Assembly (NCBI GenBank): GCA_963708045.1
Contig: OY970181.1
Span: forward strand, 779,537-843,536
Source: an uncultured bacterium
Lineage (GTDB): Bacteria; Patescibacteriota; Patescibacteriia; CAIQCM01
Length of the DNA: 64,000 nt
Reading direction: 5' to 3'
The position numbers and the translations under genes are program-made. Below the pieces are notes generated by a model. That model did not search any database, was not told the DNA's origin, and saw only the letters and a list, made by a program, of their open reading frames with translations. This document shows positions 3,743 to 57,186 of this stretch, piece by piece (position 1 is the first letter of the stretch; each line of letters begins with the position of its first letter).

Positions 3743-3745
3743 ATT

Positions 3746-6076: not shown

Positions 6077-6133
6077 AGCCCTGTTGATTGAATTACCCAA
6101 ACAAATAATATAAATTAATTCGTAAAAATAATT

Positions 6134-6592
6134 ATGAATAACAATGCCAATAATCAAGAAGTCTGGGATAAAATCCTAGGCAAAGACGAGAAAGTTAAAC
6201 ACAGTTTTACAATCGGCCCACGGTATCTAAAATACAATCTTATCGCCGGTGCGATAATCTGCGTGCCGTTCGTTTTCGCGTACGGTTTTGGCGTCGTCTT
6301 GTTCTTGATTATTCTGTTCAACTACGGTTTCTACGCTAAGAAGTTGAACATCTACGCCTTTACTGATAAGCGCGTATTAATCCACAAGGGCTGGCTTTCA
6401 ACACACATGACTAGCATCGACTATTCAAAAATTACCGATGTCCATGTTCGGGAACAATTCTTGGATAAAATCGTGTACCATACGGGCGACTTGGCCATTA
6501 ATACGGCCGGAAGTGGACGATTAGAAGTCTTCCTAAGACACATCGAAAACCCGTACGAAGTGAAGAAGATTTTAGACGAACTTAAGGGCTAA
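6134..6592 (+). CDS. membrane protein with bacterial PH (bPH_2/YdbT-like, DUF304) domain
   Basis: Two predicted TM helices ('LIAGAIICVPFVFAYGFGVVLFLIILF') followed by 'YAFTDKRVLIHKGWLSTHMTSIDYSKITDVHV', which is typical of the YdbS/YdbT PH-domain family. Confidence 0.55.
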   Translation: MNNNANNQEVWDKILGKDEKVKHSFTIGPRYLKYNLIAGAIICVPFVFAYGFGVVLFLIILFNYGFYAKKLNIYAFTDKRVLIHKGWLSTHMTSIDYSKITDVHVREQFLDKIVYHTGDLAINTAGSGRLEVFLRHIENPYEVKKILDELKG

Positions 6593-10659: not shown

Positions 10660-10701
10660 ATTTTTAGAAGAGATATGAAGAGTAAGCACAGAAATAAAAA
10701 T

Positions 10702-10763
10702 GCCCACCTCGCGGAGATGAGTCAAAATCTAAAAAGACTTTGGTTAATCTCTGCGAAGTGGGC
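10702..10763 (-). terminator. long stem-loop (17-bp imperfect stem) followed by a T-run on the minus strand
   Basis: 'gcccacctcgcggagat' (10702-10718) pairs with 'atctctgcgaagtgggc' (10747-10763) with 2 mismatches. On the minus strand the stem is followed by 'attttta ttt'. It lies between the 149-aa minus-strand ORF and the ParB-MTase gene. Confidence 0.35.
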
Positions 10764-29199: not shown

Positions 29200-29469
29200 A
29201 TACTTGTATCTTACACCCAAACCGGGACAGGACCGCTTATTGACGACATACTGGTATACTGCAAAACAATTCTCTGTGATTTGACTGACTAAGACGCCGT
29301 GAGTGAAAAATTCGCCAAGGCGTCTTTCTTAATTAAAAAATCGCCGGTTTATAAACCGATACTCTGACTTGTCCAGATATTTATCTTGAAGAGAGTGGAC
29401 GAAAATGTTATCTTAAGTAGTGAGCATCAATTAATCGAAAGCCGTATTTATTTGTACATCCAAGTTTCT

Positions 29470-32400
29470 ATGAAAAAAGTTTTTGGGACAATACTCTTGG
29501 TAGTCTTGGTGTTGGTGGGCTTCCTTGAACATGTTCCAAATGCTTCCGCTGCCGTGGACTGGGTTGCGTATAATGACGCCGGAGGGTCAGCCAATTTTGC
29601 ATCAACGGGAAATGTCACCAACTATAGTTTTACGCAAGCAAGCGCGGCTAATTTATTGAAATATGCCGATGGCACCAGCTCTGGCGTCACGGTTGCTTTT
29701 GCCGGAACCAACAATGGAGTGTACGCCGCTGCCGATGGTACTTACGCTAGTCCATACGTAACATCAAGCACGGATGCTTATAATGAATTAGTCGGCGGTG
29801 GAACGCCCATTATCAATTTGGGTTATGCCAGCCAAGTAACAACAACCAACACCATCACCATGACTTTGAGTGGTGTTTCGTCTGCCAAAACTTATGATTT
29901 GGTGATGTTTGGCGACCGTGGCAACAGTACCTATACGACCAGATACACCAAATACACCGTATCGGGCGTTCAAAGCGGGTTTGTGAACGCAAGTTCTACG
30001 GGCGCTACGAAAGCCACAACGACTTTGGCAAATGATTCAACATATTATTGTACAGGGTTCAACTATACTGCGGGTTATGTTGCAAAGTGGACCGGTTTGG
30101 TTCCGACAGGTACCACCATAACGGTCACTATTAAAGGGGTGGATGCAACCGGAGCGAGTGTCAGCATGACCGCTTATCTTAACGCCTTCAAGCTCACCCA
30201 AAATACCCCAACTTCTATCGTCGCGCCGACCGTTACGGCTTCGGCCGCGAGCACTATTACGGCGAACGGTGCTGACTTAAACGGTAATATCACTGTTGAT
30301 GGGGGAGAGTCCGCTACTGCAAGAGGTTTCCATTATGGTCTCACCGCTTCATACGGTTCAACTTCTACCACCTCCGGAACATACGGCACGGGCGCGTATT
30401 CGCAAACTATTTCCGGCTTAACTTGCAACACTCTTTACCATTACAGATCTTTTGCCACGAACTCGGGCGGCACCGGCACGTCGGCGGACGGCACTTTTAC
30501 CACCTCGGCGTGTTCCGCGCCGACCGTTACGGCTTCGGCTGCGAGCACTATCACGACCACTGGTGCTGATTTGAATGGTAATATCACGGCTGACGGCGGA
30601 GCCGCTCCTACCGCCAGGGGTTTTTATTATGGAACCACCGTTTCGTACGGCTCGACCTCTTCCACGACCGGCACATACACCACGGGTACATATTCCCAAA
30701 GCATTACTGGTTTAACCTGCAATACTCTTTATCATTATCAGGCCTTTGCTACTAACTCCGGTGGTACAGGGACCGCGACCGATGGAACCTTCACCACTGC
30801 GGCATGTCCTGTTGCGCCTACTGTTACAGCTTCAGCCGCTAGCTCGATTACGACTACTGGTGCGACCTTGACCGGCAACATTACCGCTACTGGTGGGGAA
30901 AATGCCACTGCAAGAGGTTTTCATTATGGAACCACTGTTTCATACGGTTCAACTTCTACCACTTCCGGTTCGTATGGCACTGGTGAATATACGCAAGACA
31001 TTACTGGCTTAACTTGCAACACTCTTTATCATTACCGATCTTTCGCCACTAACTCAGGCGGTACCGGCACCTCGTCGGACAACACCTTCACCACTGCGGC
31101 ATGTCCTGTTGCGCCAACTGTTACAGCTTCAGCTGCTAGCTCGATTACGACCACTGGCGCGACCTTGACCGGCAACATTACCGCTACTGGTGGGGAAAAT
31201 GCCACCGCAAGAGGTTTTCATTATGGACTCACCGCTTCATATGGTTCAACTTCTACCACTTCCGGTTCGTATGGCACTGGTGAATATACGCAAGACATTA
31301 CTGGCTTAAGCGCCAATACCATTTACCATTACAGGTCTTTTGCTACTAACTCGGGTGGCACCAGCACCTCTTCAGATAATACTTTCACCACCTCGGCTTA
31401 TTCGGTTCCCGGTGCCCCTACCAGCGCGGTCGCAACAGCCGGCAACACGCTAGCGTCCGTTGCTTTCACCGCCCCGGCATCGGACGGCGGCTCGCCCATC
31501 ACCGGCTACACCGTTACTTCAAGTCCGGGAAGTTTTACCGGCACAGGCGGCACTTCGCCGATCGTTGTTTCTGGTCTCACGAACGGCACGGCCTACACCT
31601 TTACGGTAACGGCGACGAATGTGGCTGGCACGGGTTCGGCTTCGACCGCCTCAAACTCGGTGACCCCGGCGCCCGCCGCGGGTTGGGTGGCGTATAACGA
31701 CGCTGGAGGATCGGGTACTTCGCCATCAACGGGCAATGTCACCAACGTCGCTTTTACGACGACGGCGGCAACTAATTTGGTGAAATATTCCGACAACACT
31801 AGTAGTGGTGTCACGGTTGCTTTTGCTAAAAGGGGTACCACTGGGACTTTTCAGTTGGGAGTCGCTGCCGAAGATACAGCTTCCAGCAACAGAGCATCTC
31901 CGTATGTAACATCTGGTACAGACGCCTACAATGAATTTGTCGGTGGGGGAACACCCATCATCAATTTGGGTTACGCGGGCCAAATAACGACAAACGGCAT
32001 TGTTGACATGACTTTGAGCGGCGTTTCGTCCGGTAAATCTTATGATTTAACGCTGGTGGCCTTGCGAGGTTATAACAACGCCAGTTATACAGGCAGGTAT
32101 ACGAAGACTATCGTATCGGGCGTCCAGGCAGGATTCACAAATGCCAGCTCGACCGGAACCACTATCACCACCACGACTTTGACGAACGATACCACGCGAT
32201 ATGTTGGGGGAGATAACTATGCGAACGGCTATGTTGCCAAGTGGACTGGTTTGGTTCCGACAGGCACCACCATATCCGTCTCATTTCAAGGTGTAGATTT
32301 GACTGGCGCAACCGGAGTAACCAACGCCCAAACCGCTTACCTTAACGCCTTCAAGCTCACCGAAAATGGTGCATCTTCAACAACTGTGCCGACCGTTACG

Positions 32401-35400
32401 GCCTCGGCCGCGACTTCGGTCACAGCTACCGGCGCCGCATTGAATGGCAATATCACAGCTGATGGCGGAGTCGCTCCGACCGCCAGAGGTTTTCATTATG
32501 GAACTACAGCTGCATACGGCTCGACCTCTTCCACGACCGGCACATATACCACGGGCACATATTCTCAAAGCATTACCGGCTTGACCTGCAATACCCTTTA
32601 TCATTACCGATCTTTTGCCACCAACTCGGCCGGTACCGCCACCTCGACGGACAGCACCTTCACCACCTCGGCGTGCTCCGCACCGGGAGCGCCGACCAGT
32701 GTTGTTGCGACAGGTGGCAATGCGCAAGCATCCGTCGCTTTCACGGCTCCGGCAAACGACGGTGGCTCGGCAATAACCGGCTACACCGTCACCTCAAGTC
32801 CGGGAAGTTTTACCGGCACAGGAAGTGCTTCGCCAATTGTCGTCACCGGACTCACGAACGGCACGGCATACACTTTCACAGTTACCGCGACGAATGCGAT
32901 CGGTACGGGTGCGGCTTCGACCCCCTCGAGTTCGATTACTCTGTCTACTGGAACAGGACCGCTCATTTCATCGGCGGCATCGCAGATGTTTTTGACGGGT
33001 AGTGCCGCGGCTGCGATTTCTACGATAACCGTAACCGACAATACTCTTACTCCGTACATAACGGCCGCTAACGACATCCGCATCAAAATTCCTTCTGGCT
33101 TCAACATGGTCTGGGATTCGACGGATACCGCCGCCACTATTGGTGGAGCGGCGTCAGCTCATGTATCGGGAACGGTTTCGTACGAAGACGCGGATAAGAC
33201 CCTGGTCATTAATGTCAGCGAAAATTTTGCTGTTAGCGACGTAATAACCATTTCCGGCCTGTCTTTCAAGACCTTCAGCGCGGCGTCCGTGGCCGATAAT
33301 TTGGAATTGGAGGTCAACAATGCCGGCACGACAATCGCCGTGGATGACAAGACGATTTCCATCACCGCAGTGACTGTTTCTTCTGCTGCTAACCAGACAT
33401 TTACCGTCGCAGATCCGACAACCGCGATGTCGCAAATTACCGTCACTGACAGCGCTTCGTCTCCGTATATAACGGCTACCAACGACATCAGGATCAAAAT
33501 TCCAGCCGGCCTCGACATGACTTGGGATGCAGCTGCTTTGGGAAGCGTTGTTATTGGCGGCGCAGCATCGGCCAAGATTAGCACCTCGGGAGGTCTTGAT
33601 TCGCCGTACACGCCGATCGTTAACTTGCACAGGGCGAACTTGCACGGGCATACCACGAATAGCGACGGCGCCCAGACGGCGTTCGGCCTACATGACTTCA
33701 TATTTGAACCTCGGTTATTCGGCGGCCGCCATCACTGATCACGATTATTTCACGCCCAACCCGAGCGTTTCTGGCATTACCCACGTGAGGGGTGTTGAGA
33801 ACACGGCCAATGCCGCCGGTGGAATGGGGGATATGGCTTCGTTTGGCATAACTTCATTTTTGTCGTCAAACAGGCAGACACAGGTCGATACCTATACGAG
33901 CCAAGGAGGTGTTTCTAGCGTCAACCATCCTATCACCGGTTGGACTAACGCCGGCACGGTGAATTTGAATGGCTACACAAATATGGAAGTCTTCAACTCC
34001 CATTACGGGGATTTGGAGCCGTATGTTGACTATGCGTTAAGCAACGGCAAACAGTTTTGGCTTGTTGCGAACGATGACCTTCATACTACTATTCAGATAT
34101 ACCGTGCTTGGAACGAGTTAAACAGCTCAAAGACCGTCGGAAACCTTACCGAAGCCGATGTCGTGAATATAATAAAAAGCGGCGATTTCTATGCTTATGG
34201 CAGAGGGGACAGAAGCAATGCTCCTGCTGCAGATCAACAGTACGGCAGTTTGCCGACCCCAGCTAAGTTTACGGGCATTACGGTGAGTGGTTACGCGGTT
34301 ACCGCTAATATCGATAAGAGCGCCAACATACAATTCATCACGAAAAACGGGACGATTTCGCAAACCAACAATAGTGTGACGACAGCCAGCTATACAGCGT
34401 CGCTCACTGATATTTATGTCAGGGTAAAGGTGTCCTACACTTCCGGGGGAAAAACCGCATACTCATTCAGCAACCCGATTTACATAACGGAGTCGGGCCC
34501 GGCGGCAGTTTCTTTGGAAGACAGCGGCAAGACGCTGGTCATCGATGTTGGAACTAACTTTGTTGCAGGTGACGCAATAACTATTTCGGGATTAAAATTC
34601 AACAACTTTACTACAGCGGGTTCCGGTAATTTGACCTTGTCGGTTAGCGGATCGGGAGCCACGGTAAATGACACTGACGACAAAACGATAACCATTGAAT
34701 CGGGATTACTGACCCCGACCGCTTCCATCACCAACACACCCCGGTCATACAACGGCTCGGCTCAAACCGCGACTGTCGCCTGTACAGGCGGAGGCACTGC
34801 CACGATCGCATCGGGCGGAACCGGAACTGATGCAGGGTCGTATGCGACCACGGTGAACTGCGCCGCGAGCGCTGGCTATGAAGCTGCGACAGGACTTTCA
34901 GCAGGAAACTTTGTTATCTCCAAAGCAACTCCAACTGCCTCCATCACCAACACACCCCGGTCATACAACGGCTCAGCTCAGACGGCGAACGTTGCTTGTT
35001 TAGGTGGAGGCGCCGCTACAATAAACACTGGCGGAACTGGCACCAATGCTGGTTCATACGCAACCACGGTTGATTGCGCCACGAGCACTAACTACTCCGC
35101 AGCAACAGGACTTTCAGCAGGGAACTTTGTTATTGAAAAAATAGCCCCTACTGCTTCCATCACTAATTCGTCTCAGCCATACACTGGCTCAGCGCAGACC
35201 GCGACTGTTGCTTGCTTGGGTGGAGGAACTGCCACGCTTGCGTCAGGTGGAACCGGAACTGATGCAGGTTCGTATGCAGCCACCGTCAACTGTGCCACGA
35301 GCACCAATTATTCCGCAGCTACGGGACTTTCAGCAGGAAATTTCGTTATTGAAAAAATAGCTCCGACTGCTTCTATCACCAACACGCCACGGTCATACAC

Positions 35401-38400
35401 CGGCTCAGCTCAGACGGCGAACGTTGCTTGTTTAGGTGGAGGCGCCGCTACAATAAACACCGGTGGAACTGGCACAAGCGCTGGTTCATACGCAACCACG
35501 GTTGATTGTGCCACGAGCACTAACTACTCTGCAGCAACAGGACTCTCAGCGGGAAATTTCGTTATTGAAAAAATAGCTCCAACTGCCTCCATCACCAACA
35601 CGCCTCAGTCATACAACGGCTCGTCGCAAACCGCGAACGTTGCTTGTTTAGGTGGAGGAACTGCCACGCTTGCCTCAGGTGGAACTGGAACTGATGCAGG
35701 ATCGTATGCAGCCACCGTCAACTGCGCCGCGAGCACCAACTACTCTGCAGCAACAGGACTTTCGGCAGGAAATTTCGTCATTGAAAAAATAACTCCAACT
35801 GCTTCCATCACCAACACGCCTCAGTCATACAACGGCTCGTCGCAAACCGCGAACGTTGCTTGTTTAGGTGGAGGAACTGCCACGCTTGCCTCAGGTGGAA
35901 CTGGAACTGATGCAGGTTCATACGCAACCACGGTTGATTGTGCTACGAGCACCAACTACTCTGCAGCAACAGGACTCTCGGCCGGAAACTTCGTCATTTC
36001 CAAAGCAACTCCGACTGCTTCCATCACCAACACGCCCCGGTCATACAATGGTTCAGCTCAAACCGCGACCGTCGCCTGTACGGGCGGAGGCGCCGCTACA
36101 ATAAACACCGGTGGAACTGGCACAAGCGCTGGTTCATACGCAACCACAGTTGATTGTGTTGCAAGCACAAACTACTCCGCCGCCACGGGACTTTCGGCGG
36201 GTGACTTCGTCATTTCCAAAGCAACTCCAACTGCCTCCATCACCAACACACCCCGGTCATACAATGGTTCAGCTCAAACCGCGACTGTTGCTTGTTTGGG
36301 TGGAGGTGCCGCTACAATAAACACTGGCGGAACTGGCACCAATGCTGGAACATACGCAACCATGGTTGATTGCGCCACAAGCACCAACTACTCTGCAGCC
36401 ACCGGACTTTCAGCAGGGAACTTTGTTATTGAAAAAATAGCTCCAACTGCTTCCATCACCAACACACCCCGGTCATACAATGGTTCAGCTCAAACCGCGA
36501 CTGTTGCTTGTTTGGGTGGAGGTGCCGCTACAATAAACACGGGTGGAACTGGCACCAATGCTGGAACATACGCAACCACGGTTGATTGCGCCACAAGCAC
36601 CAACTATAATGCCGCCACCGGATTATCGGCAGGCGACTTCGTAATCTCTAAGATTGCTCCTACCGCTTCCATCACCAATTCGTCTCAGCCATACACTGGC
36701 TCAGCGCAGACGGCGACTGTTGCTTGTTTAGGTGGAGGCGTTGCCACGCTTGCGTCAGGTGGAACTGGAACTGATGCAGGATCGTATGCAGCTATAGTTG
36801 ATTGCGCCACAAGCACCAACTACTCTGCAGCCACCGGACTTTCAGCAGGGAACTTTGTTATTGAAAAAATAGCTCCAACTGCTTCCATCACTAATTCGTC
36901 TCAGCCATACACTGGCTCAGCGCAGACTGCGACTGTCGCCTGTACAGGCGGAGGCGCCGCTACAATAAACACCGGTGGAACTGGCACAAGCGCTGGTTCA
37001 TACGCAACCACGGTTGATTGTGCCACGAGCACCAACTACTCCGCAGCAACAGGACTCTCGGCAGGAAATTTCGTTATTGAAAAAATAGCCCCAACTGCTT
37101 CCATCACTAATTCGTCTCAGCCATACACTGGCTCAGCGCAGACCGCGACTGTTGCTTGTTTAGGTGGAGGCGTTGCAACGCTTGCCTCAGGCGGAACCGG
37201 AACTGATGCAGGTTCGTATGCAGCCACCGTCAACTGCGCCGCGAGTACCAACTACAATGCCGCCACCGGATTATCGGCAGGCGACTTCGTAATCTCTAAG
37301 ATTGCTCCTACTGCCTCCATCACCAATTCGCCTCAGTCATACAACGGCTCAGCGCAGACTGCGACTGTCGCCTGTACAGGCGGAGGCGCCGCTACAATAA
37401 ACACCGGTGGAACTGGCACAAGCGCTGGTTCATACGCAACCACAGTTGATTGTGTTGCAAGCACAAACTACTCCGCCGCCACGGGACTTTCGGCGGGTGA
37501 CTTCGTCATTTCCAAAGCAACTCCAACTGCCTCCATCACCAACACACCCCGGTCATACAATGGTTCAGCTCAAACCGCGACTGTTGCTTGTTTGGGTGGA
37601 GGTGCCGCTACAATAAACACTGGCGGAACTGGCACCAATGCTGGAACATACGCAACCATGGTTGATTGCGCCACAAGCACCAACTACTCTGCAGCCACCG
37701 GACTTTCAGCAGGGAACTTTGTTATTGAAAAAATAGCTCCAACTGCTTCCATCACTAATTCGTCTCAGCCATACACTGGCTCAGCTCAGACCGCGACTGT
37801 TGCTTGTTTAGGTGGAGGCGTTGCCACGCTTGCGTCAGGTGGAACTGGAACTGATGCAGGATCGTATGCAGCTATAGTTGATTGCGCCACAAGCACCAAC
37901 TACTCTGCAGCCACCGGACTTTCAGCAGGGAACTTTGTTATTGAAAAAATAGCTCCAACTGCTTCCATCACTAATTCGTCTCAGCCATACACTGGCTCAG
38001 CGCAGACTGCGACTGTCGCCTGTACAGGCGGAGGCGCCGCTACAATAAACACCGGTGGAACTGGCACCAATGCTGGAACATACGCAACCATGGTTGATTG
38101 CGCCACAAGCACCAACTACTCTGCAGCCACCGGACTTTCAGCAGGGAACTTTGTTATTGAAAAAATAGCTCCAACTGCTTCCATCACTAATTCGTCTCAG
38201 CCATACACTGGCTCAGCTCAGAACCGCGACTGTTGCTTGTTTAGGTGGAGGCGTTGCCACGCTTGCGTCAGGTGGAACTGGAACTGATGCAGGATCGTAT
38301 GCAGCTATAGTTGATTGCGCCACAAGCACCAACTACTCTGCAGCCACCGGACTTTCAGCAGGGAACTTTGTTATTGAAAAAATAGCTCCAACTGCTTCCA

Positions 38401-41400
38401 TCACTAATTCGTCTCAGCCATACACTGGCTCAGCGCAGACTGCGACTGTCGCCTGTACAGGCGGAGGCGCCGCTACAATAAACACCGGTGGAACTGGCAC
38501 AAGCGCTGGTTCATACGCAACCACAGTTGATTGTGTTGCAAGCACAAACTACTCCGCCGCCACGGGACTTTCGGCGGGTGACTTCGTCATTTCCAAAGCA
38601 ACTCCAACTGCCTCCATCACCAACACACCCCGGTCATACAATGGTTCAGCTCAAACCGCGACTGTTGCTTGTTTGGGTGGAGGTGCCGCTACAATAAACA
38701 CTGGCGGAACTGGCACCAATGCTGGAACATACGCAACCATGGTTGATTGCGCCACAAGCACCAACTACTCTGCAGCCACCGGACTTTCAGCAGGGAACTT
38801 TGTTATTGAAAAAATAGCTCCAACTGCTTCCATCACTAATTCGTCTCAGCCATACACTGGCTCAGCTCAGAACCGCGACTGTTGCTTGTTTAGGTGGAGG
38901 CGTTGCCACGCTTGCGTCAGGTGGAACTGGAACTGATGCAGGATCGTATGCAGCTATAGTTGATTGCGCCACAAGCACCAACTACTCTGCAGCCACCGGA
39001 CTTTCAGCAGGGAACTTTGTTATTGAAAAAATAGCTCCAACTGCTTCCATCACTAATTCGTCTCAGCCATACACTGGCTCAGCGCAGACTGCGACTGTCG
39101 CCTGTACAGGCGGAGGCGCCGCTACAATAAACACCGGTGGAACTGGCACCAATGCTGGAACATACGCAACCACGGTTGATTGTGTTGCAAGCGCTAACTA
39201 CTCTGCAGCTACAGGACTTTCAGCAGGGAACTTCGTCATTGAAAAAATAACTCCAACTGCTTCCATCACTAATTCGTCTCAGCCATACACTGGCTCAGCG
39301 CAGACGGCGACTGTTGCTTGTTTAGGTGGAGGCGTTGCCACGCTTGCGTCAGGTGGAACTGGAACTGATGCAGGATCGTATGCAGCTATAGTTGATTGCG
39401 CCACAAGCACCAACTACTCTGCAGCCACCGGACTTTCAGCAGGGAACTTTGTTATTGAAAAAATAGCTCCAACTGCTTCCATCACTAATTCGTCTCAGCC
39501 ATACACTGGCTCAGCGCAGACTGCGACTGTCGCCTGTACAGGCGGAGGCGCCGCTACAATAAACACCGGTGGAACTGGCACAAGCGCTGGTTCATACGCA
39601 ACCACAGTTGATTGTGTTGCAAGCACAAACTACTCCGCCGCCACGGGACTTTCGGCGGGTGACTTCGTCATTTCCAAAGCAACTCCAACTGCCTCCATCA
39701 CCAACACACCCCGGTCATACAATGGTTCAGCTCAAACCGCGACTGTTGCTTGTTTGGGTGGAGGTGCCGCTACAATAAACACTGGCGGAACTGGCACCAA
39801 TGCTGGAACATACGCAACCATGGTTGATTGCGCCACAAGCACCAACTACTCCGCAGCAACAGGACTTTCGGCTGGAAACTTTGTTATTGAAAAAATAACT
39901 CCAACTGCTTCCATCACCAATTCGTCTCAGCCATACACTGGCTCAGCGCAGACCGCGACTGTTGCTTGTTTGGGTGGAGGTGCCGCTACAATAAACACCG
40001 GTGGAACTGGCACTAACGCCGGGTCATATGCGACCACGGTTGATTGCGCCACAAGCACAAACTACTCCGCAGCAACGGGACTCTCGGCAGGAAACTTTGT
40101 TATTGAAAAAATAACTCCTACAGCTTCCATCACTAATTCGTCTCAGCCATACACTGGCTCAGCGCAGACGGCGACTGTTGCTTGTTTAGGTGGAGGCGTT
40201 GCAACGCTTGCCTCAGGTGGAACTGGAACTGATGCAGGATCGTATGCAGCTATAGTTGATTGCGCCACAAGCACCAACTACTCTGCAGCCACCGGACTCT
40301 CGGCAGGAAATTTCGTTATTGAAAAAATAGCCCCAACTGCTTCCATCACTAATTCGTCTCAGCCATACACTGGCTCAGCGCAGACCGCGACTGTTGCTTG
40401 TTTAGGTGGAGGCGTTGCAACGCTTGCCTCAGGCGGAACCGGAACTGATGCAGGTTCGTATGCAGCCACCGTCAACTGCGCCGCGAGTACCAACTACAAT
40501 GCCGCCACCGGATTATCGGCAGGCGACTTCGTAATCTCTAAGATTGCTCCTACTGCCTCCATCACCAATTCGCCTCAGTCATACAACGGCTCAGCGCAGA
40601 CTGCGACTGTCGCCTGTACAGGCGGAGGCGCCGCTACAATAAACACCGGTGGAACTGGCACAAGCGCTGGTTCATACGCAACCACAGTTGATTGTGTTGC
40701 AAGCACAAACTACTCCGCCGCCACGGGACTTTCGGCGGGTGACTTCGTCATTTCCAAAGCAACTCCAACTGCCTCCATCACCAACACACCCCGGTCATAC
40801 AATGGTTCAGCTCAAACCGCGACTGTTGCTTGTTTGGGTGGAGGCGTTGCAACGCTTGCCTCAGGCGGAACTGGAACTGACGCAGGTTCGTATGCAGCCA
40901 CCGTCAACTGTGCCACGAGCACCAATTATTCCGCAGCTACTGGACTTTCGGCAGGCGACTTCGTTATCTCCAAGGCCACTCCAACCGCTTCCATCACCAA
41001 TACGCCTCAGCCATACACTGGCTCCTCGCAGACCGCGACTGTTGCTTGTTTGGGTGGAGGAGCTGCTACTCTCGTTTCCGGCGGAACCGGCACCAGTGTG
41101 GGGTCGTATGAAGCCTTCGTTAACTGTGCTGCCAGCGCCAACTATAACGCCGCCTCGGGGCTTTCGGCGGGCTTCTTCATTATCGGAACAGTAGCCCCCA
41201 CTGCCTACATTACCAACTCACCTCAGCTATACACCGGTTCAGCACAGACCGCTACGGTGGCTTGCACGGGCGGAGGAGTAGCCACTATCGCTTTAGGCGG
41301 AGTCGGCACTAACATCGGTTCATATCCGACCACTGTGAACTGCGCCGCAAGTCCCGGATACGAAGCGGCTACCGGCCTAGACGCCGGGAGTTTCGTCATC

Positions 41401-44400
41401 TCCAAGGCCACACCCACCGCTTCAATCATCAATTCGCCGCAGGTATACACCGGCTCCTCGCAAACTGCGACTGTCGCTTGTTTGGGTGGAGGAACTGCCA
41501 CGCTTGCCTCAGGCGGAACCGGCACCAATGCGGGAACATATCCTGCAATCGTCAACTGCGCTGAAAGCACAAATTACAATGCAGCCACAGGCCTCTCGGC
41601 AGGAAACTTCGTCATTGAAAAAATAACTCCAACTGCCTCCATCACCAACACGCCTCGGTCATACAACGGCTCGGCGCAAACCGCCACGGTGGTATGTTTG
41701 GGCGGAGGAACTGCCACGCTTGCCTCAGGCGGAACCGGCACCAATGCGGGAACATATCCTGCAATCGTCAACTGCGCCGCGAGCACCAACTATAACACCG
41801 CCTCGGGACTTTCAGCAGGCGATTTCGTAATCTCTAAGATTGCTCCGACCGCTTCCATCACCAATACACCTCAGCCATACACTGGTTCCTCGCAAACTGC
41901 CGCTGTCGCTTGTTTGGGTGGAGGAGTAGCAACGATTGCGACCGGTGGTACTGGTACTGATGCAGGTTCATACGCAACCACGGTTGATTGTGCTACGAGC
42001 ACCAATTACTCCGCCGCCACAGGACTCTCGGCCGGAAATTTCGTCATCTCTAAAGTAACTCCAACTGCCTCCATCACCAACACACCACAGTCATACAATG
42101 GCTCAGCTCAGACGGCCGTCGTTGCTTGTTTGGGTGGAGGCGCCGCTACAATAAACACGGGTGGAACTGGCACAAGCGCTGGTTCATACGCAACCACCGT
42201 TGACTGCGCCACGAGCACCAATTATTCCGCAGCTACGGGACTTTCGTCAGGGAACTTTGTCATCTCTAAAATTGCTCCAACAGCTTCCATAACCAACTCG
42301 CCTCAGTCGTACACCGGTTCGTCGCAAACGGCGGCCGTGTCTTGCTTGGGCGGGGGCGCTGCCACGATTAATACAGGCGGAACCGGAACTGACGCGGGAA
42401 CATATCCGGCCACGGTTGACTGCGCCACAAGCACCAACTACTCCGCCGCTACGGGACTTTCGGCTGGAAATTTCGTCATCTCCAAAGCAACTCCTACGGC
42501 TTCCATCACCAATTCGCCTCAACCATATACCGGCTCAGTTCAGACCGCCATCGTTGCTTGTTCGGGCGGAGGTGTTGCCACGCTTGCCTCAGGCGGAACT
42601 GGAACTGATGAAGGTACATATCCTACAATCGTCAACTGCGCTGAAAGCGCCAACTACTCAGCCGCTACGGGACTTTCGGCAGGTGACTTCGTTATTGGAA
42701 AAATAAACCCGACCGCTTCCATCACCAATACGCCACGGTCATACAACGGCTCAGCTCGAGACGGCGACTGTCGTCTGTACGGGCGGGGGCACTGCTACAA
42801 TAAACACTGGCGGAACTGGAACTAACGCCGGATCGTATGCGACCACAGTTGATTGTGCCGCAAGCGCTGGTTACTTCGCAGCCACGGGACTTTCAGCAGG
42901 AAACTTTGTTATTGAAAAAATAGCTCCAACTGCCTCCATCACCAACTCACCACGGTCATACACTGGTTCAGCCCAAACAGCGAACGTTGCTTGTTTAGGT
43001 GGAGGCACCGCTACAATAAACACCGGTGGAACTGGCACTAATGCGGGAACATACGCAACCACGGTTGATTGTGCTACGAGCACCAATTACTCCGTCGCCA
43101 CAGGACTCTCGGCCGGAAATTTCGTCATCTCTAAAGTAACTCCGACAGCTTCCATAACCAACTCACCCCAAACACACACTGGCTCGTCTCAAACTGCCGC
43201 GGTTTCTTGTTTGGGCGGAGGTGTCGCAACGATAAACACAGGCGGAACCGGAACTAATGCGGGAACATACGCAACCACAGTTGATTGTGCCACGAGCACC
43301 AACCACTCCGCAGCCACCGGACTTTCAGCAGGCGACTTCGTTATCTCCAAGGCCACTCCAACTGCTTCTATCACCAATTCGCCGCAGCTATATAACGGTT
43401 CGGCTCAAACGGCCGTCGTGTCTTGTTTGGGTGGAGGTGTTGCGACGCTCGCATCTGGCGGAACCGGCACTAATGCTGGAACATATGCCGCAGTCGTCAA
43501 CTGCGGCACAAGCACTAACTACTCCGCCGCCACGGGACTTTCGGCAGGAAACTTTGTCATTGAAAAAATAACTTCAACTGCTTCCATAACCAACTCGCCC
43601 CAAACATACACCGGCTCGGCGCAAACCGCGAACGTCGCTTGCTTGGGCGGAGGTGCCGCTACAATAAACACCGGTGGAACTGGCACTAACGCCGGGTCAT
43701 ATGCGACCACTGTTAACTGCGCCACGAGCACTAACTACAGCGCGGCCTCGGGACTCGCGGCGGGCGACTTCGTAATCTCTAAAGCGACTCCGACTGCTTC
43801 CATCACCAACACACCCCAGACATACACTGGTTCCGCTCAAACCGCGAACGTTGCTTGCTTGGGCGGAGGCGTTGCGACTCTTGCCTCAGGTGGAACTGGA
43901 ACTGATGCAGGTTCGTATGCGGCCACCGTCAACTGCGCCGAAAGTGCTAACTACTCAGCGGCTACAGGACTCTCGGCGGGAAACTTCGTCATCGGCGCTA
44001 CCCCAGTGGTAATCAGCGTTGCGGCAATACCCGGAGTCACGATCCCTGTGAGAGCAGTAACTCCAGTGTCAACTATAGCTGACACTGGTGAATACACCGC
44101 GACAATTACATGGTCGCCTGTAAGTAATCCATTTGCAGCAAACACCGTTTATACGGCAACAATTACGATCACGCCCAATGCGGGTTATACCTTAACAGGT
44201 ATAGCAAGTAATTTCTTTACAGTAGCTGGAACAAGTATTCCAGCTACAAATTCAGCAGGATCTGGGGTGGTCACGGCAGTATTTCCGGCGACGGGATCTG
44301 CGCCTTCTAGCGGTGGCGGTGGCGGCGGCGGTGGTGGCGGCGGGTATTATGTTCCACCACCAATCGCTCCGGTTGTTTCTGTTACGCCCCCTGTGTTGAC

Positions 44401-45070
44401 TCCGGCTCCGGTTGTTCCTGTTACACCCACCGAGACTTCTCCAACTCCAACTCCAGCTCCAGCGGTTTCTGATCAGGATAAATTCAAAAAGAATTTAACC
44501 TACCTCACAACGAACTCGGATATACGCGAGTTGCAAAAATATTTTAACGCAAACGGCTTCATAGTTGCATCAAGAGGCGCTGGTTCGCCAGGCAAGGAAA
44601 CGGATTATTTCGGCGATTCAACCTTAAGCACTCTCATTAAATTCCAAGAAGCAAATAAAGATAAAGTTGTTGGATTAATTGATGAAAAAGGATATTTTGG
44701 TCCGATAACTCGACAATTGATCAATACGATAATAATCACAAATCCAACTCCAGCTCCAGCGGTTTCTGATCAGGATAAATTCAAAAAGAATTTAACCTAC
44801 CTCACAACGAACTCGGATATACGCGAGTTGCAAAAATATTTTAACGCAAACGGCTTCATAGTTGCATCAAGAGGCGCTGGTTCGCCAGGCAAGGAAACAG
44901 ATTATTTCGGTGATTCAACCTTAAGCACTCTCATTAAATTCCAAGAAGCAAATAAAGATAAAGTTGTTGGATTAATTGATGAAAAAGGATATTTTGGTCC
45001 GATAACTCGACAATTGATCAATACGACAATAATCACAAATCCAACTCCAGCTCCAGCCCAGCAACCCTAA
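29470..45070 (+). CDS. giant (about 15.6 kb) cell-surface repeat protein gene, reading frame interrupted by four +1 shifts (near 33690, 38222, 38871 and 42757). It is either a pseudogene or an indel/assembly error in the repeats
   Basis: Signal peptide 'MKKVFGTILLVVLVLVGFLEHVPNASA' at 29470. The protein theme then continues without stops across frame 1 (to 33738), frame 2 (to 38287), frame 3 (to 38936), frame 1 (to 42825) and frame 2 (to 45070). Domains: a duplicated roughly 230-aa N-module, five Fn3-like roughly 97-aa repeats plus two Fn3 domains, a PHP domain, about forty 72-aa repeats, a poly-Gly/Pro linker and 2 x PG_binding_1. Confidence 0.7.
30229..31392 (+). repeat. four tandem roughly 291-bp Fn3-like repeats (a fifth copy at about 32383-32676)
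   Basis: Repeated 'PTVTASAAS.IT..GA.L.GNIT..GG..ATARGFHYG.T.SYGSTS.TSG.YGTG.Y.Q.I.GLTCNTLYHYRSFATNSGGTGTS'. Confidence 0.7.
33600..34130 (+). other. PHP (polymerase and histidinol phosphatase) phosphoesterase domain embedded in the giant protein, split by the first frameshift
   Basis: Frame 1 carries 'NLHGHTTNSDGAQT' (PHP motif I, D/N-L-H-x-H-T-x-x-S-D-G). Frame 2 continues 'YLNLGYSAAAITDHDYF' (motif II, AITDHD) with the expected spacing of about 27 aa. Later come 'NMEVFNSHYG' and 'LVANDDLHT' (the G-S-D-A-H-like motif). Confidence 0.55.
34700..43990 (+). repeat. about 40 tandem 216-bp (72-aa) repeats with two conserved Cys per unit (count estimated from length, not counted exactly)
   Basis: Unit consensus 'PTASITN[ST][PS][RQ][SP]Y[NT]GS[AS]QTA[TN]VAC[LT]GGG.AT[IL][NA][TS]GGTGT[NDS]AG[ST]YA..V[DN]CA[TA]STNYSAATGLSAG[ND]FVI[ES]K[IA]'. 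Several subtypes are present. There are long near-identical blocks, e.g. 38221 vs 38870 (period 649 = 3x216+1). Confidence 0.8.
44455..45036 (+). repeat. near-identical tandem duplication (2 x about 291 bp) encoding peptidoglycan-binding (PG_binding_1-like) domains
   Basis: 'PTPAPAVSDQDKFKKNLTYLTTNSDIRELQKYFNANGFIVASRGAGSPGKETDYFGDSTLSTLIKFQEANKDKVVGLIDEKGYFGPITRQLINT' occurs twice with only a few synonymous nucleotide differences. The pattern matches PG_binding_1 (L..G....DG.FG..T..A...FQ...GL..DG..G..T...L). Confidence 0.6.
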
Positions 45071-45299: not shown

Positions 45300-47126
45300 A
45301 TGATACGTAAAAGTAGCGATGGAAGGCGCGAAATCGTTCGCAGTATTAACGGAACGCCTCATGGCGGTCATTTGGAAACATTGGCCAAATTGGCTTTCGC
45401 GGTCATGCTGGTCGTGAACTTGCTGTCCTGGATGAATCAACGGTCTAAGCACGAGGTAGTCGCGACTCAGCACGGAGACATTGCGGCTTTGCACAAGGCC
45501 GAAGCGGCCTTTCAGACTTTTCAGTCCAAAGGAAATGCTTGGACGATTGATGATCTGGTCAACGTGCGAAACACACTCGTCACGATCCGCGATGCCGAGG
45601 GACACAGCCAGTCCGTAAGCACACGCATTGACGCGCTAGTTCAGGCCTCGGTCGGGAAAACTCTTGATGCGCTCAATAGTGCGGCGGCCGCATCTATTAC
45701 TGTGAAAGAAAGGATCGTTACTCAGGGTCGGGTGGAAAGGGTGCGAAGCGAACTGTTTTCTCACCCCCCATTTCAACCGGTCTTCGCGGGCGGTTTCGGA
45801 CATATTCTTTGGGCGCTGGCCAAGCTGGGCGGCAAGACCTACTTGCTGTTCATGTCGTTTGCGCTTCTCTGTTTTCTGGCGCGGGTATCAAGGAACCGGT
45901 TGTCACTCAGTGACGAATTGATGTTCGGGTTTCGGCGTCTCGCCGTTTCAACGGTCTTTTGGCCGGCTGGGATGTCCGAGTATCCGCGCGATACGGCCTT
46001 CGTGTTGCGTCGCCAGAAGATCGCCAAGGAATATTTGGTGCGGCATGGTAGAAGTGTTTGGGACTCGCTTACTGAAATGGATCAACGCGCCATTGACCGA
46101 CTGGTCATGCAGCCGCTCACTGAACTGCGTCAAAGTCTGGACGCGATTCGCGAACTCCCGTTCCGTCTCGTGCTCAAAGCCCGTCTCGCGTTCTGTGTCT
46201 CAGTGTTCGCGAGTTACATGCTTACGGTGACCACTTTCGGTCGCAGTACGGCTCATGCGGCGGAAAATACCGCGGTTACCGACGTGGCGGCGCAAGTCAC
46301 CACGCCTTCGCAAGATGCGCCGGAGGTTCCCCAACCGCTCAGTCTGAGCGGTTTTACGCAAGTTTCGGCGAACATGGAGAACGGCAACACCAAAGCCGAA
46401 CGCATGTTTATCCGAGGCGTTAGCGGCCCGTTCAAAGGACTAACTGTTAACTTAATGGGCAATGTCGTGAATCCGGCCTTGCTTATTGCTCAGGCAGTTT
46501 ACCGGCGCGGTTCAATTAGTGTCGGCGCCGGACAGATTGTCTACCCATCGGCGCTCCAGGTTCCTTCTCCGGACGGGCAAAGGATTATTGGCGGCCCGCT
46601 GTGTCAAAGTCTGATTCCTTTCTGGGGACTTGGCGCGGAAGTGCTCGGGGATCATGGGGTGGTTAAGTGGGGATTGGCGTATTTGTCCGAAACCGATCTT
46701 GGTGCACCAGGAGTCCGCAAACCGCGTTCGGCTCAAGCAGCGCTCTCTTTGCCAAAATTGGGACCATTTGGTTTACTGGTCACGGCAACCGTTGGCAAAG
46801 ATGACGCAGGAATACATGCCTATTATTCGGCAATGGCAAACCTCCATCTCGGCCCAGTTGATGTGGTTGGCAATGGCGTCCTCAACAAAGACGCGGGCGT
46901 CTTTTCCAAAGGAGTAACGGGTTTCCTCGGCTGGCATTTCACCCCGCATTTAGATGTTACGGGGCAATTCGACCGGCTCGAAGTTCCCAACGCTCCCGTG
47001 AATCAGCGCTTCGGGTTGCAAATCACTGCGCTTGGCTGGACAGATCGTCTGAGACTCGGAATCCTTGGATTCAGAAGCTCAGTCGCCGGCCTTGGTTCGC
47101 TCATGCGCTTGCAGTTCGCATTCTGA
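45300..47126 (+). CDS. hypothetical protein (608 aa) in a visibly GC-richer segment. The C-terminal third has beta-barrel/porin-like alternating hydrophobicity and ends in '...LQFAF'
   Basis: 1.8-kb ORF. Internal TM-like helices ('HILWALAKLGGKTYLLFMSFALLCFLARV'). C-terminal aromatic residue. GC is clearly higher than the flanks by eye (not computed). All competing ORFs are short. Confidence 0.4.
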   Translation: MIRKSSDGRREIVRSINGTPHGGHLETLAKLAFAVMLVVNLLSWMNQRSKHEVVATQHGDIAALHKAEAAFQTFQSKGNAWTIDDLVNVRNTLVTIRDAEGHSQSVSTRIDALVQASVGKTLDALNSAAAASITVKERIVTQGRVERVRSELFSHPPFQPVFAGGFGHILWALAKLGGKTYLLFMSFALLCFLARVSRNRLSLSDELMFGFRRLAVSTVFWPAGMSEYPRDTAFVLRRQKIAKEYLVRHGRSVWDSLTEMDQRAIDRLVMQPLTELRQSLDAIRELPFRLVLKARLAFCVSVFASYMLTVTTFGRSTAHAAENTAVTDVAAQVTTPSQDAPEVPQPLSLSGFTQVSANMENGNTKAERMFIRGVSGPFKGLTVNLMGNVVNPALLIAQAVYRRGSISVGAGQIVYPSALQVPSPDGQRIIGGPLCQSLIPFWGLGAEVLGDHGVVKWGLAYLSETDLGAPGVRKPRSAQAALSLPKLGPFGLLVTATVGKDDAGIHAYYSAMANLHLGPVDVVGNGVLNKDAGVFSKGVTGFLGWHFTPHLDVTGQFDRLEVPNAPVNQRFGLQITALGWTDRLRLGILGFRSSVAGLGSLMRLQFAF

Positions 47127-47838: not shown

Positions 47839-48774
47839 ATGAAAAAACGAATATTTATTTATTTGTTAACAATTGTACTTTTAGCAACGCCGATTTTATC
47901 TTTTGCGGCGGTTCCAGCGAACACGATTGGTCGTATTCTTTTGCAAGTTCAATCATCTGGCGAAGCTTGGTATGTGAGTCCGGTTACTAAAACGCGTGTC
48001 TACCTTAAAAACGGCGCGATGGCATATGACTTGCTCAGAACAGACGGTTTGGGAATAACAAAAAACGATTTATCTTTAATACCGATTGGGATTGAAGATC
48101 GTTTCGTTGGCTCTGATACTGATACTGACGGCGATGGTTTACCCGACACCCTTGAGCAAGCCATAGGAACGGATCCGAATAAAGTTGATACTGATGGTGA
48201 CGGCTTTTCTGATGGTGTTGAGGTTCGGAGTGGCTATGACCCCGTCGGCAACAAATCCGGCGCCAAAACTATCATCAACGCCGCGCTTACCAAACGTCTC
48301 TCGGGGCGCATTGTTATTGATGTCTCAAGGGTTGGTCAGGCTTGGTATATAAATCCGTCTAATCTTAAACGGTATTTTCTGAAGGATGGAAACGCGGCTT
48401 ACACGATCATGCGATATTTAAGTTTGGGTATCACCAACGCCAGTCTGGCGTTAATACCAATTGCTGCCCAAACGATTTCAGCAACTGGCGTCGCCAGTGT
48501 CCAATTAATATTAGAAGATTTTCGTCAAGCGTTCTTAACTTGCGATATGTCGCTGATTACAAAACACTCAACCGTTGAAACTTCAAAGATTGTATTGTCT
48601 TCATCGGCGCAATGCAAGAAGGCTAGTTCGGTAAAAGTTGAAAGCGTTACCGTAACTTCTAATTCAAATATTGAAGCTGTTTTGCAAATTGAAGGGGAAG
48701 CAAGCGGAAGCAAAGTTTTAATTTTTGTAAACGAAAATGGCGGTTGGAAGTTTGATATTAACGCCACTTATTGA
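47839..48774 (+). CDS. secreted protein with thrombospondin type-3-like calcium-binding repeats
   Basis: Signal peptide 'MKKRIFIYLLTIVLLATPILSFA'. 'DTDTDGDGLPDTLEQAIGTDPNKVDTDGDGFSDGVE' are TSP3-type D-x-D-x-D-G-x-x-D repeats. The duplicated flanking domain contains 'GEAWYVSP' / 'GQAWYINP'. Confidence 0.5.
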   Translation: MKKRIFIYLLTIVLLATPILSFAAVPANTIGRILLQVQSSGEAWYVSPVTKTRVYLKNGAMAYDLLRTDGLGITKNDLSLIPIGIEDRFVGSDTDTDGDGLPDTLEQAIGTDPNKVDTDGDGFSDGVEVRSGYDPVGNKSGAKTIINAALTKRLSGRIVIDVSRVGQAWYINPSNLKRYFLKDGNAAYTIMRYLSLGITNASLALIPIAAQTISATGVASVQLILEDFRQAFLTCDMSLITKHSTVETSKIVLSSSAQCKKASSVKVESVTVTSNSNIEAVLQIEGEASGSKVLIFVNENGGWKFDINATY

Positions 48775-52028: not shown

Positions 52029-52094
52029 GTGTTAGTAGTCTCCTATGTTTAATTTTGGCGACAATTGGTTGGGTATTGTATAGTTAATAACTAT

Positions 52095-52907
52095 ATGAAC
52101 CGACGTGCTTTTACCGTTATTGAACTTCTTGTCGTGATCGCGATTATCGGCCTATTATCCAGTGTAGCTATTGTTGCTTTTAATTCTACTAGAGAAAATG
52201 CGCGCCTGACTTCGGGGAAACATTTTTCGTCAATGATTAATAATAGTATAGGAAGTTATGCTATTGGCTGGTGGAACCTTAATGAATGTTCGGGCACAAC
52301 GGCAAATGATGCTTCGGGTTACGGCAATAATATAACCCTGTACGGTGGTCCGGGTTGGCCTGCTGATTCTCCCACAGATCAAGCATGTTCAATGTCTCTG
52401 AATGGATCGCAATACGGCAGGATTGTCTCCTTGAACGGCCAGCCAATAGGGAATTCCGCGGTTACAATTTCCGCATGGGTGAAGCCAACGGATGTGAGTA
52501 GCTTAAAGACGATTGCCTGCTTGGGAGTAGATAGTGCAGGTGCTACTGCATATGGAATTGCATTAAGAAACTTGCAGTTTACCGCTTTCTTTTCTTCATA
52601 TAACGGCATTGTAACTGGTAGATCATTACCCAAGGTGAACAAATGGTATTTTGTCACCGGCGTATACGATGGGACGAAAAATAGTATTTATGTTGACGGG
52701 CATTTGGATAATAGCGTTGACTATTCTTCGGGCAATCTATCCGCTGGTCAGGCCTCAATCGGACTTTGGTGCGGATATTTATCTGGAAATAATTTTATCG
52801 GCAACGTTGGTGATGTAAAGATTTTTGCGAGTGCCTTGTCAGCCGAAAGAGTGCACAACCTCTACGCAGAGCAAAAAAAATTTTTTGAGTTGGCGTCACA
52901 AAAATAA
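52095..52907 (+). CDS. type IV pilin-like protein (prepilin-type N-terminal methylation domain) with a LamG/concanavalin-like C-terminal domain
   Basis: 'MNRRAFTVIELLVVIAIIGLLSSVAIVAF' is the class III signal / pilin N-terminal helix with the conserved Glu. The C-terminus 'WYFVTGVYDGTKNSIYVDGHLDNSV' is LamG-like. The track start (52065) is a TTG. Confidence 0.7.
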   Translation: MNRRAFTVIELLVVIAIIGLLSSVAIVAFNSTRENARLTSGKHFSSMINNSIGSYAIGWWNLNECSGTTANDASGYGNNITLYGGPGWPADSPTDQACSMSLNGSQYGRIVSLNGQPIGNSAVTISAWVKPTDVSSLKTIACLGVDSAGATAYGIALRNLQFTAFFSSYNGIVTGRSLPKVNKWYFVTGVYDGTKNSIYVDGHLDNSVDYSSGNLSAGQASIGLWCGYLSGNNFIGNVGDVKIFASALSAERVHNLYAEQKKFFELASQK

Positions 52908-56184: not shown

Positions 56185-57186
56185 ATGAAAAACGACATTC
56201 TTTTAAAAATTGAAAAAGCCGGACTGGTGGGGCGGGGTGGAGCGGAATATCCAACGGCTAAAAAATGGCAAGAGGTTGGTCGCGCTTTGGGCGCGCAAAA
56301 ATTCGTCGTCTGTAACGCGAGCGAAGGGGAGATTGGTCTCTTCAAAGATCTTTATATTTTAAAGACTTATCCCGAAATGGTTGTTAAGGGAGTAATTTTG
56401 GCGCTGGATTTTTTGGGTTCCAAGGACGCGTTTTTTAATTTGAACAAACGATATTTTAAAATGATTGGTTCTAGGCTCGCGCCAATTATTAAAAAATACA
56501 ACCACCAAGGATATAACATTAAAATTTTTGTTGAAGAGCCGAGTTATATTGGTGGCGAAGAAACAGCGCTTCTTAACGCAATAGAAGGCAAGCGTACCGA
56601 ACCGCGTCAAAAGCCGCCGTACCCGTCAAATGCCGGCCTCTATGGCGCCCCAACGCTTATTAACAACGTTGAAACGCTTTACAACATCGCTTGCGTTCAC
56701 GACGGCACGTTTGCGAACAAACGTTTCTATTGTCTTTCTAAAAGCGGAAAAAAAATCGGCGTGTATTATTTGCCCGACAATTGGGATATAGAAAAAATTT
56801 TGAAAGAAACAAAAAATTATCCCAACTATAAATTTTTCGTTCAGGTCGGCGGTAGCGCTTCGGGAATTGTTTTTGACGAAAGCCAGATTAAAGGCAAGCT
56901 CGCAACTGGCGCCGCCGCGCTTGATATTCATAATAAAAATGAAGCCCCAAGAAAGGTTCTTTTAAACTGGCTTAAATTTTACCAGCAGGAAAGTTGCGGT
57001 AAATGCACCCCTTGCCGCGTCGGCACTTTTGAACTTTACGAAATGGTGAAGAAAAATAAAAATATTCCTTGGAAAGAAATGTTTGAAATTTTGGAAACAA
57101 TGGACGCGACTTCGTTTTGTGCCCTTGGCCGTTCGGTTAGCGTGCCGATTAGGTCTTATTATTCCAATGTCTTAAAACTGAAATGA
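56185..57186 (+). CDS. NuoF-like NAD(H)-binding FMN/4Fe-4S subunit (hydrogenase diaphorase-type subunit)
   Basis: 'GLVGRGGAEYPTAKKW', 'VVCNASEGEIGLFKD', 'YIGGEETALLNAIEGKR', 'SCGKCTPCRVG' and 'FCALGR' are all NuoF/HoxF family motifs. It overlaps hydA by 4 nt. Confidence 0.8.
   Translation: MKNDILLKIEKAGLVGRGGAEYPTAKKWQEVGRALGAQKFVVCNASEGEIGLFKDLYILKTYPEMVVKGVILALDFLGSKDAFFNLNKRYFKMIGSRLAPIIKKYNHQGYNIKIFVEEPSYIGGEETALLNAIEGKRTEPRQKPPYPSNAGLYGAPTLINNVETLYNIACVHDGTFANKRFYCLSKSGKKIGVYYLPDNWDIEKILKETKNYPNYKFFVQVGGSASGIVFDESQIKGKLATGAAALDIHNKNEAPRKVLLNWLKFYQQESCGKCTPCRVGTFELYEMVKKNKNIPWKEMFEILETMDATSFCALGRSVSVPIRSYYSNVLKLK

Follow-up and report, generated by a model that had tools for sequence, protein, structure and literature searches.

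The locus and its layout

The stretch of DNA described here, 64,000 nucleotides (nt) of contig OY970181.1 from an uncultured bacterium and hereafter called the window, holds on its forward strand a giant gene, the greater part of which is a 9.3-kb tandem array of 72-amino-acid (72-aa) units with two cysteines each. This array had attracted attention in an earlier reading of the same letters, which we call the original prediction, as a possible new repeat family; here we describe the gene around it, the kinship of its units and the part that it might play in the protein. From its sequence, we read 29470-45070 as one gene of about 5,199 aa after the removal of four extra bases; as assembled, the gene lies in five frame pieces. 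We treat it as one gene because the repaired junction between the first two pieces aligns without a gap with a homologous protein (P0166) and because the frames of the array continue one another. The features of the gene, in order, are the following (ORF, open reading frame; TRF, Tandem Repeats Finder).

29470-29550, + strand: putative gene start and Sec-type signal peptide (MKKVFGTILLVVLVLVGFLEHVPNASA), read from the translation (basic n-region, hydrophobic core, A-S-A)
29551-33620, + strand: N-terminal "head" with a duplicated module of ~330 aa, 99-aa repeats and fibronectin type III (Pfam, TRF, self-blastn)
33620-34100, + strand: PHP-like module (resembling metallohydrolases of the polymerase/histidinol-phosphatase type), interrupted by a frame break and bearing HGH...DG and TDHD motifs (Pfam, P0166)
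33670-33690 (~33683), + strand: frame break 1, one extra base, frame 1 to frame 2; the interval contains CAGACGGCG at 33673-33681 (P0166 alignment, ORFs)
34101-34714, + strand: beta-rich linker modules (...ISGLKFNNF...TITIE) between the PHP-like module and the array, conserved with P0166, no Pfam family
34715-44005, + strand: MBG_3-like two-cysteine domain array, 43 units of 216 nt/72 aa each (TRF, cutting at PTASI, MBG_3 homology, single-unit model)
38222, + strand: frame break 2, an extra A in unit 17, CAGACCGCG to CAGAACCGCG, frame 2 to frame 0 (unit comparison)
38871, + strand: frame break 3, the same extra A in unit 20, CAGACCGCG to CAGAACCGCG, frame 0 to frame 1 (unit comparison)
42757, + strand: frame break 4, an extra base in unit 38, CTCAGACGGCG to CTCGAGACGGCG, frame 1 to frame 2 (unit comparison)
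44006-44309, + strand: beta-rich module of ~100 aa after the last unit (VVISVAAIPGVT...VFPAT), no Pfam family (translation)
44310-44441, + strand: poly-glycine run and proline-rich linker (TRF period 12, (GGC)n at 44310-44343; translation)
44442-45070, + strand: two 99-aa copies, each with PG_binding_1, then the stop codon at 45068-45070 (TRF, Pfam)

A coding array of 43 units

When cut at the recurring PTASI motif, the array resolves into 43 head-to-tail units that run from 34715 to 44005 on the + strand and are joined by short, proline-containing junctions (K-I-A-P-T). Forty of the 43 units are exactly 216 nt long, and units 17 (38171), 20 (38820) and 38 (42709) are 217 nt long; TRF reports period 216, 42.1 copies and 77% matches over 34892-43989. 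The original prediction of a protein-coding 72-aa tandem repeat in some 40 copies is thus borne out. The array clearly lies far beyond chance, codes for protein and is under constraint: third codon positions hold 65.5% of the nucleotide differences between units, synonymous codon differences number 22,007 vs 12,427 non-synonymous ones, and the unit frame has no stop among its 3,096 codons, as against about 119 in shuffled sequence and 79-120 in the other two frames.

How alike are the units? With the extra base removed, the 43 units comprise 33 distinct 72-aa sequences with a mean column identity of 85%; at the nucleotide level mean pairwise identity is 77%, several units are 100% identical, and exact identical tracts inside the array reach 551 bp. 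A mosaic of exact tracts of this length is the trace expected from intragenic recombination and gene conversion, and the patchwork shows an array that undergoes homogenisation and resizing via intragenic recombination; the unit copy number presumably varies in the population.

At the level of motifs, the invariance claimed for the units was overstated. For example, VAC.GGG is conserved in 38 of 43 units (V.C.GGG in all 43), V[DN]CA in 36 (V[DN]C in all 43) and GGTGT.AG.Y in 40, and the long C-terminal motif STNYSAATGLSAG[ND]FVI[ES]K is found in only 27. Of the two proposed subtypes (PRSY[NT]G vs SSQPYTG; ATINT vs ATLAS) both are present, though without strict alternation. The identical 69-aa out-of-frame ORFs at 36111, 37407, 38488 and 39569 are likewise present, as is the long-period identity of 1081 bp that they had revealed (5 x 216 + 1); what had been overlooked is that the "+1" is a real extra base and a frameshift, to which we return below.

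The units as a two-cysteine subtype of MBG_3

When single units are scanned against Pfam, only two families recur: MBG_3 (PF18887), which matches 14 of the 33 distinct units at E<=1 (best E 0.0071) and does so in register over profile positions 4-72 of 72, and MBG_2 (PF18676), which matches 11 of the 33 weakly, also in register. The hidden Markov models (HMMs) of the Big families (bacterial Ig-like domains, Big_3 / Big_3_5) give no match to the units themselves in Pfam scans, and the units find no sequence match to the family HMMs of the Rib domain or Big_3. Two whole-ORF matches, "STK_08120-like" and "DUF6333", have no significant stretch and look compositional, and we rejected them.

Profile comparisons are far more telling. 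A profile of the 33 units, aligned by hhalign with 16 units from the homologous proteins P0028 and P0037, matches over 72 of 72 columns with 98.7% probability (E 3.3e-16), and three short deletions explain the difference between 72 and 78 residues; each of the 16 comparison units passes MBG_3 individually, with a best E of 3.6e-14. In an exhaustive search of 1.84 billion representatives, the unit profile HMM retrieves 486 proteins at E<=0.001. Ten of the top hits were scanned, of which six pass the MBG_3 cut-off and one that of MBG_2, and in three of the six (P0027, P0028 and P0037, with 8, 11 and 8 unit matches) the MBG_3 stretches equal the unit matches in number, at 216-280 bits. Cysteine-bearing intermediates are among these relatives: a two-cysteine unit of P0005 is 51% identical to the array units and passes MBG_3 at 38.9 bits, and all eight units of P0027 are of the two-cysteine type. 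Additionally, two-cysteine and cysteine-less units are interleaved within single arrays, as in P0020, P0022 and P0025. The two-cysteine subtype is present in 56 of the non-self hit proteins examined, and its closest homologues are mostly metagenomic fragments, with one from a metagenome-assembled genome of Geobacteraceae and one labelled M6 metalloprotease-like.

Because of the profile-profile match, the retrieval, the intermediates and the mixed arrays, we assign the unit, on its sequence, to a short-loop, two-cysteine subtype of the MBG_3-type domain, lying under the curated thresholds, and not to a new family. The opposite view, that the units form a genuinely new domain family unrelated to MBG, could appeal to the fact that no unit rises above a curated Pfam or NCBIfam threshold and that no close solved structure exists; we give it hardly any credence, given the full-length match to MBG_3 units, the continuous series of intermediates that pass MBG_3, two-cysteine units among them, and the adjoining of two-cysteine and canonical units in single arrays. 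The original prediction had called the family novel and had itself named membership in an MBG- or Big-type family as grounds for giving that claim up; profile search yields MBG_3 homology, and with it the claim of novelty essentially falls.

This assignment has practical consequences. A 9.3-kb "unknown" repeat becomes annotatable as an MBG-type stalk, and the curated Pfam MBG_3 and MBG_2 models are seen to overlook a recurring short-loop, two-cysteine subtype; an MBG model rebuilt with these units as seed would annotate proteins that have been overlooked.

Predicted fold and the cysteine pair

AlphaFold2, given an alignment of 65 diverse homologous units, returns an all-beta model of a single unit with a predicted local distance difference test score (pLDDT) of 93.3, and the predicted fold is a small immunoglobulin (Ig)-like beta-sandwich. 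The structures closest to this model are Rib domains (PDB 6S5Y, 6S5Z and 8YKE). Foldseek of the model against the PDB gives nothing at E<0.4, and a sequence search of the PDB with the family profile gives only noise at E~0.1 (nanobodies).

Every one of the 43 units has exactly two cysteines, as had been claimed, spaced 26 residues apart (C-x25-C) and not about 30. Among 543 non-self homologous units that have a residue in each of the two columns, 129 have both cysteines, 404 have neither, 10 have the first only and none has the second only; units without cysteines mostly have G/S and F at these two positions. In an alignment of 466 distinct units, the pair of columns 23 and 49 leads all long-range pairs in raw mutual information and comes second after average-product correction, and in the single-unit model both cysteines terminate beta-strands. 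The co-occurrence and the mutual information fit a structural pair, which would most simply be one intradomain disulfide per unit, standing in for the G/S...F core pair of the cysteine-less MBG units. The disulfide of the original prediction is thus plausible, with indirect support.

Four frame breaks in one gene

Along the array the unit frame passes from 2 to 0 to 1 to 2, and the array is spread over four ORF pieces and not one. Break 1 lies ahead of the array. The upstream ORF (29386-33738, 1,450 aa), whose first in-frame start is a TTG at 29386, stops at 33738; deletion of one base near 33683 gives a translation that reads ...NLHGHTTNSDGAQTASAYMTSYLNLGYSAAAITDHD..., and this repaired translation is 49% identical over 412 residues to the 602-aa P0166, gap-free through the junction HGHTTNSDGAQTASAYMTSY. 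With that base removed, Pfam PHP also matches across the junction, weakly and under its cut-off (E 8.8e-4). The flanking 600 nt of break 1 are unique within the window. Breaks 2 and 3, in contrast, lie inside an identical 444-bp tract (38057-38500 = 38706-39149), and unit 15, which is identical to unit 17 over 166 nt upstream and 278 nt downstream, is without the extra base. All four breaks are +1 and stand beside the motif CAGAC[CG]GCG, which outside the array occurs in the 64 kb only at 33673, at break 1, and at 54232 on the - strand, in an intact cold-shock gene. We rejected the motif itself (CAGACGGCG) as a mark of frame breaks, given the copy in the intact gene and 11 array units that carry it unbroken; an alternative genetic code was also rejected, as it would not restore the frame.

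What, then, do the breaks represent? One explanation is that the gene is a recently inactivated pseudogene: the +1 insertions would be real, would go back to three independent events, of which recombination inside the array copied one, and would leave only a truncated, anchorless product of ~1,420 aa, if any. We consider this quite possible, if short of probable. The breaks are confined to the giant gene, whereas the scanned genes elsewhere in the window look intact and stop-free stretches of 100 codons or more cover 89% of the remaining sequence. Break 1 falls in unique sequence, and unit 15, whose surroundings match those of units 17 and 20 over hundreds of bases, has no extra A, which is a misfit with a context-driven error of base calling; moreover, the same frameshifted products are present in a public protein collection, where they are assigned to the 1.19-Mb contig. 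What this explanation has to accommodate is the state of the sequence downstream of the breaks, where the 3,096 unit-frame codons hold no stop or further indel and the codon-position bias is equal across all four frame segments of the array; these undamaged frames imply that any inactivation is very recent. In addition, it would be odd for random decay to produce +1 events only, all beside one motif.

The same preserved frames also speak for a second explanation, namely that the real gene is undamaged and that errors of assembly or consensus, made with long reads in a highly repetitive region, introduced the breaks and possibly distorted the exact copy number. With exact repeats as long as 551 bp, both read placement and polishing become unreliable, and several database homologues end in frameshifted tails. 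That such arrays are prone to consensus errors is seen in a Flye-style contig (L001; ENA ERZ25039459 contig_30719), which carries at 3033-6557 a related two-cysteine MBG array of ~14 units full of frame changes; these recur at unit positions ~24-27 and 56-62 and look like a context-specific long-read consensus error. Such artefacts are harder to reconcile with a break in unique sequence outside the repeats, with the unaffected identical context in unit 15, with inserted bases that do not fall within long homopolymers, and with the rest of the window, which is without signs of noisy assembly. We hold this explanation, too, to be a serious contender that stops somewhat short of likely.

Could the breaks instead be functional? 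Programmed +1 ribosomal frameshifting, or site-specific switching, at CAGAC[CG]GCG would control expression of the stalk and anchor, and would account for the shared direction and short motif of the breaks, for the rarity of that motif (two occurrences in the 64 kb apart from those in the array, of which one falls exactly at break 1) and for the intact downstream frames. The sites themselves tell otherwise: they have no slippery sequence, in-frame stop or rare-codon pause, the zero frame continues for 17-26 codons past each of them, eleven array units and the cold-shock gene carry the motif unbroken, and the motif was defined after the sites had been seen. We regard programmed recoding as extremely improbable. 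The broader proposal that a site-specific process and not chance made the three independent +1 insertions, whether a recoding signal or a mechanism of targeted mutation or switching, seems to us very improbable as well; if true, it would mean that a giant surface protein of the candidate phyla radiation (CPR) has its stalk and wall anchor switched on and off by such a process. The clustered frame breaks are not yet evidence of anything unusual.

Searches for the same locus elsewhere gave only distant relatives. A scan of genome contigs found no orthologous locus, only a 28%-identical relative; two metagenome scans gave no exact match across break 1, or only relatives at 30-42%; and exact look-ups of the first ORF and of the protein P0023 found no match. 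Two short-read runs that contain the same strain, ERR15459707 and ERR12035931, do have proteins identical to those encoded in the flanks.

Head, anchor and base composition

The head is itself repetitive. Its ~330-aa module (WVAYNDAGGS...YLNAFKLT) occurs in two copies, at 29551-30522 and 31675-32685, which share 70% nucleotide identity by self-blastn and match no Pfam family. The 99-aa repeats lie at 30220-31400 (TRF period 297 nt, 3.6 copies, 79% matches), with one distant copy at 32385-32680; they have a conserved GLTCNTLYHY...ATNSGG and give only weak fn3-like matches (Pur_ac_phosph_N, E 0.01). Pfam fn3 itself is found in two stretches of the head at E 9e-19, the best at 32689-32931. P0166 (L003 4629-6437, JGI 3300043569; and L004) is a free-standing protein with IRIKIP, PHP-like and ISGLKFNNF modules and with no stalk or anchor; the head module thus also occurs as a separate gene, in that case beside ftsH and aspS.

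At the other end, PG_binding_1 is matched in two stretches (Pfam E 4e-15) that coincide with a TRF repeat of period 297, 2.1 copies and 98% matches; this 98% identity between the copies (44442-45057) points to a very recent duplication. Scans for promoters and terminators at the ends of the giant gene gave nothing usable.

The region 30001-44000 differs from its flanks in base composition, with 52-55% G+C and negative GC skew against 38-45% and positive skew. This contrast is probably explained by a Gly/Ala/Thr-rich composition; foreign origin is a possible alternative.

Genomic neighbourhood

The neighbouring glycogen synthase GlgA has its best named relatives, at ~60% identity, in Wolfebacteria, Giovannonibacteria, Parcubacteria and Patescibacteria, from which we place the small genome (~1.19 Mb) as related to Patescibacteria (CPR); the proteins of the window trace to one contig of 1,188,223 bp. 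Neither Rfam nor tRNA scans found anything in the window.

Near the start of the window lie a type III-like restriction-modification pair (N6_N4_Mtase, 2009-3742; ResIII helicase, 3746-6076) and a ParB-N-fused DNA methylase (9364-10725, - strand). EcoP1I-type enzymes recognise AGACC, which overlaps the frame-break motif, a resemblance only. Two large serine recombinases (Resolvase, Recombinase and Zn_ribbon_recom), at 456-1766 (-) and 15223-16545 (+), bracket the ~15 kb that hold the methylases, and the stretch between them may be an integrated mobile element.

Downstream of the giant gene lie a 608-aa ORF with no Pfam family (45300-47126), a bacterial TSP3-repeat protein (47839-48774) and, per the annotation of a short-read contig, an N_methyl/Laminin_G_3 (pilin-like) protein (52065-52907); these genes may form a surface-protein neighbourhood. 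Further on, at 56185-58898, a NuoF-like flavoprotein (Complex1_51K) adjoins an [FeFe]-hydrogenase large subunit, and together the two imply an anaerobic fermentative lifestyle, which bears on extracellular disulfides.

The array as a probable stalk

What would 43 such domains in series do? We think it likely that the array is the MBG-type stalk of a giant secreted, cell-wall-tethered surface protein in this Patescibacteria-related genome. The 43 domains would make a long rod that keeps the N-terminal head, with its duplicated modules, Fn3 and PHP-like module, at a distance from the cell, and attachment to peptidoglycan would fall to the two PG_binding_1 domains at the C-terminus. The array would in that case be a spacer that sets the distance to which the head projects from the wall, in a rod-shaped protein that may be oriented head out and anchor in. 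MBG_3 is a small Ig-like beta-sandwich that occurs in tandem arrays of bacterial extracellular proteins, and the units agree with this: they stand in 43 tandem copies, in a gene with a signal peptide as read from the sequence and with fn3 and PG_binding_1.

Several observations weigh against this interpretation. No unit reaches the Pfam curated cut-off for MBG_3 or MBG_2 (best 15.7 vs 25 bits), whole-ORF Pfam scans are without MBG at E<=0.01, and an NCBIfam scan of the ORFs gives nothing for the array. The original prediction had suggested modelling three units together; AlphaFold2 run in that way, on an alignment of the gene's own units only, returns a pLDDT of just 30. The gene as assembled is not translatable as one protein, and the stop at 33738 precedes the stalk. 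Additionally, the [FeFe]-hydrogenase encoded in the window suggests an anaerobe, for which the formation of extracellular disulfides is not a given.

An alternative role for the units is also conceivable. CPR bacteria are commonly episymbionts and must attach to hosts, and MBG-type and Ig-like repeats are found in adhesins; the units might thus be more than a passive spacer, namely adhesive or ligand-binding modules (for a glycan or a host cell, for example), with multivalency as the purpose of the 43 copies. Some stalk domains of periscope proteins, a class of surface protein described below, may indeed have ligand roles (PMC8201768). We consider adhesive units unlikely: MBG_3 has no known ligand site, the variable positions are few and conservative, and the mosaic tracts and the closeness of the units in DNA sequence suit selection for length and recombination better than selection for diversified binding.

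With its 43 stalk domains and its peptidoglycan-binding tail, the protein joins the record as a candidate giant surface protein of the periscope type, encoded in a Patescibacteria-related genome of ~1.2 Mb; it bears on the question of how ultra-small cells, which are often episymbiotic, extend beyond their envelope.

Comparison with known systems

Set beside MBG_3 (PF18887), the units fall in the same length class, follow the same skeleton (N-S-P-x-x-Y-x-G ... A-T-V ... G-x-Y-a-v-T ... N-Y ... A-G-N-F-V-I) and occur, like MBG_3, in tandem arrays of secreted proteins. They differ in having 72 aa instead of ~78, by three short deletions, in a Gly-rich GGTGT loop, in a cysteine pair where MBG_3 has G/S...F, and in scoring below the 25-bit cut-off. 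The Rib-domain arrays of streptococci and lactobacilli (6S5Y, 6S5Z and 8YKE) are small Ig-like sandwiches set head to tail as a rod in proteins anchored to the wall, and the units, on their predicted fold, would share this arrangement.

CdrA of Pseudomonas aeruginosa, a two-partner-secretion adhesin of a Gram-negative, offers a further comparison. Its stalk domains (MBG_2, PF18676, "YGX type") resemble the units described here in being many and near-identical, with a DNA identity that permits intragenic recombination, whereas the giant protein begins with a putative Sec signal peptide and ends in PG_binding_1 domains. CdrA, with its stalk of MBG_2 domains, is one of the proteins, along with SasG and Rib, in which the "periscope protein" layout was described, in the study that also created the MBG_2 family (Whelan et al. 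2021, PMC8201768). A hallmark of such proteins is a number of repeats that differs from strain to strain. In layout the gene in the window agrees with them: its tandem domains are highly similar, have high DNA identity and are confidently predicted to fold, a head with fn3 and PHP-like modules lies at the N-terminal end, and two copies of PG_binding_1 lie at the C-terminal one.

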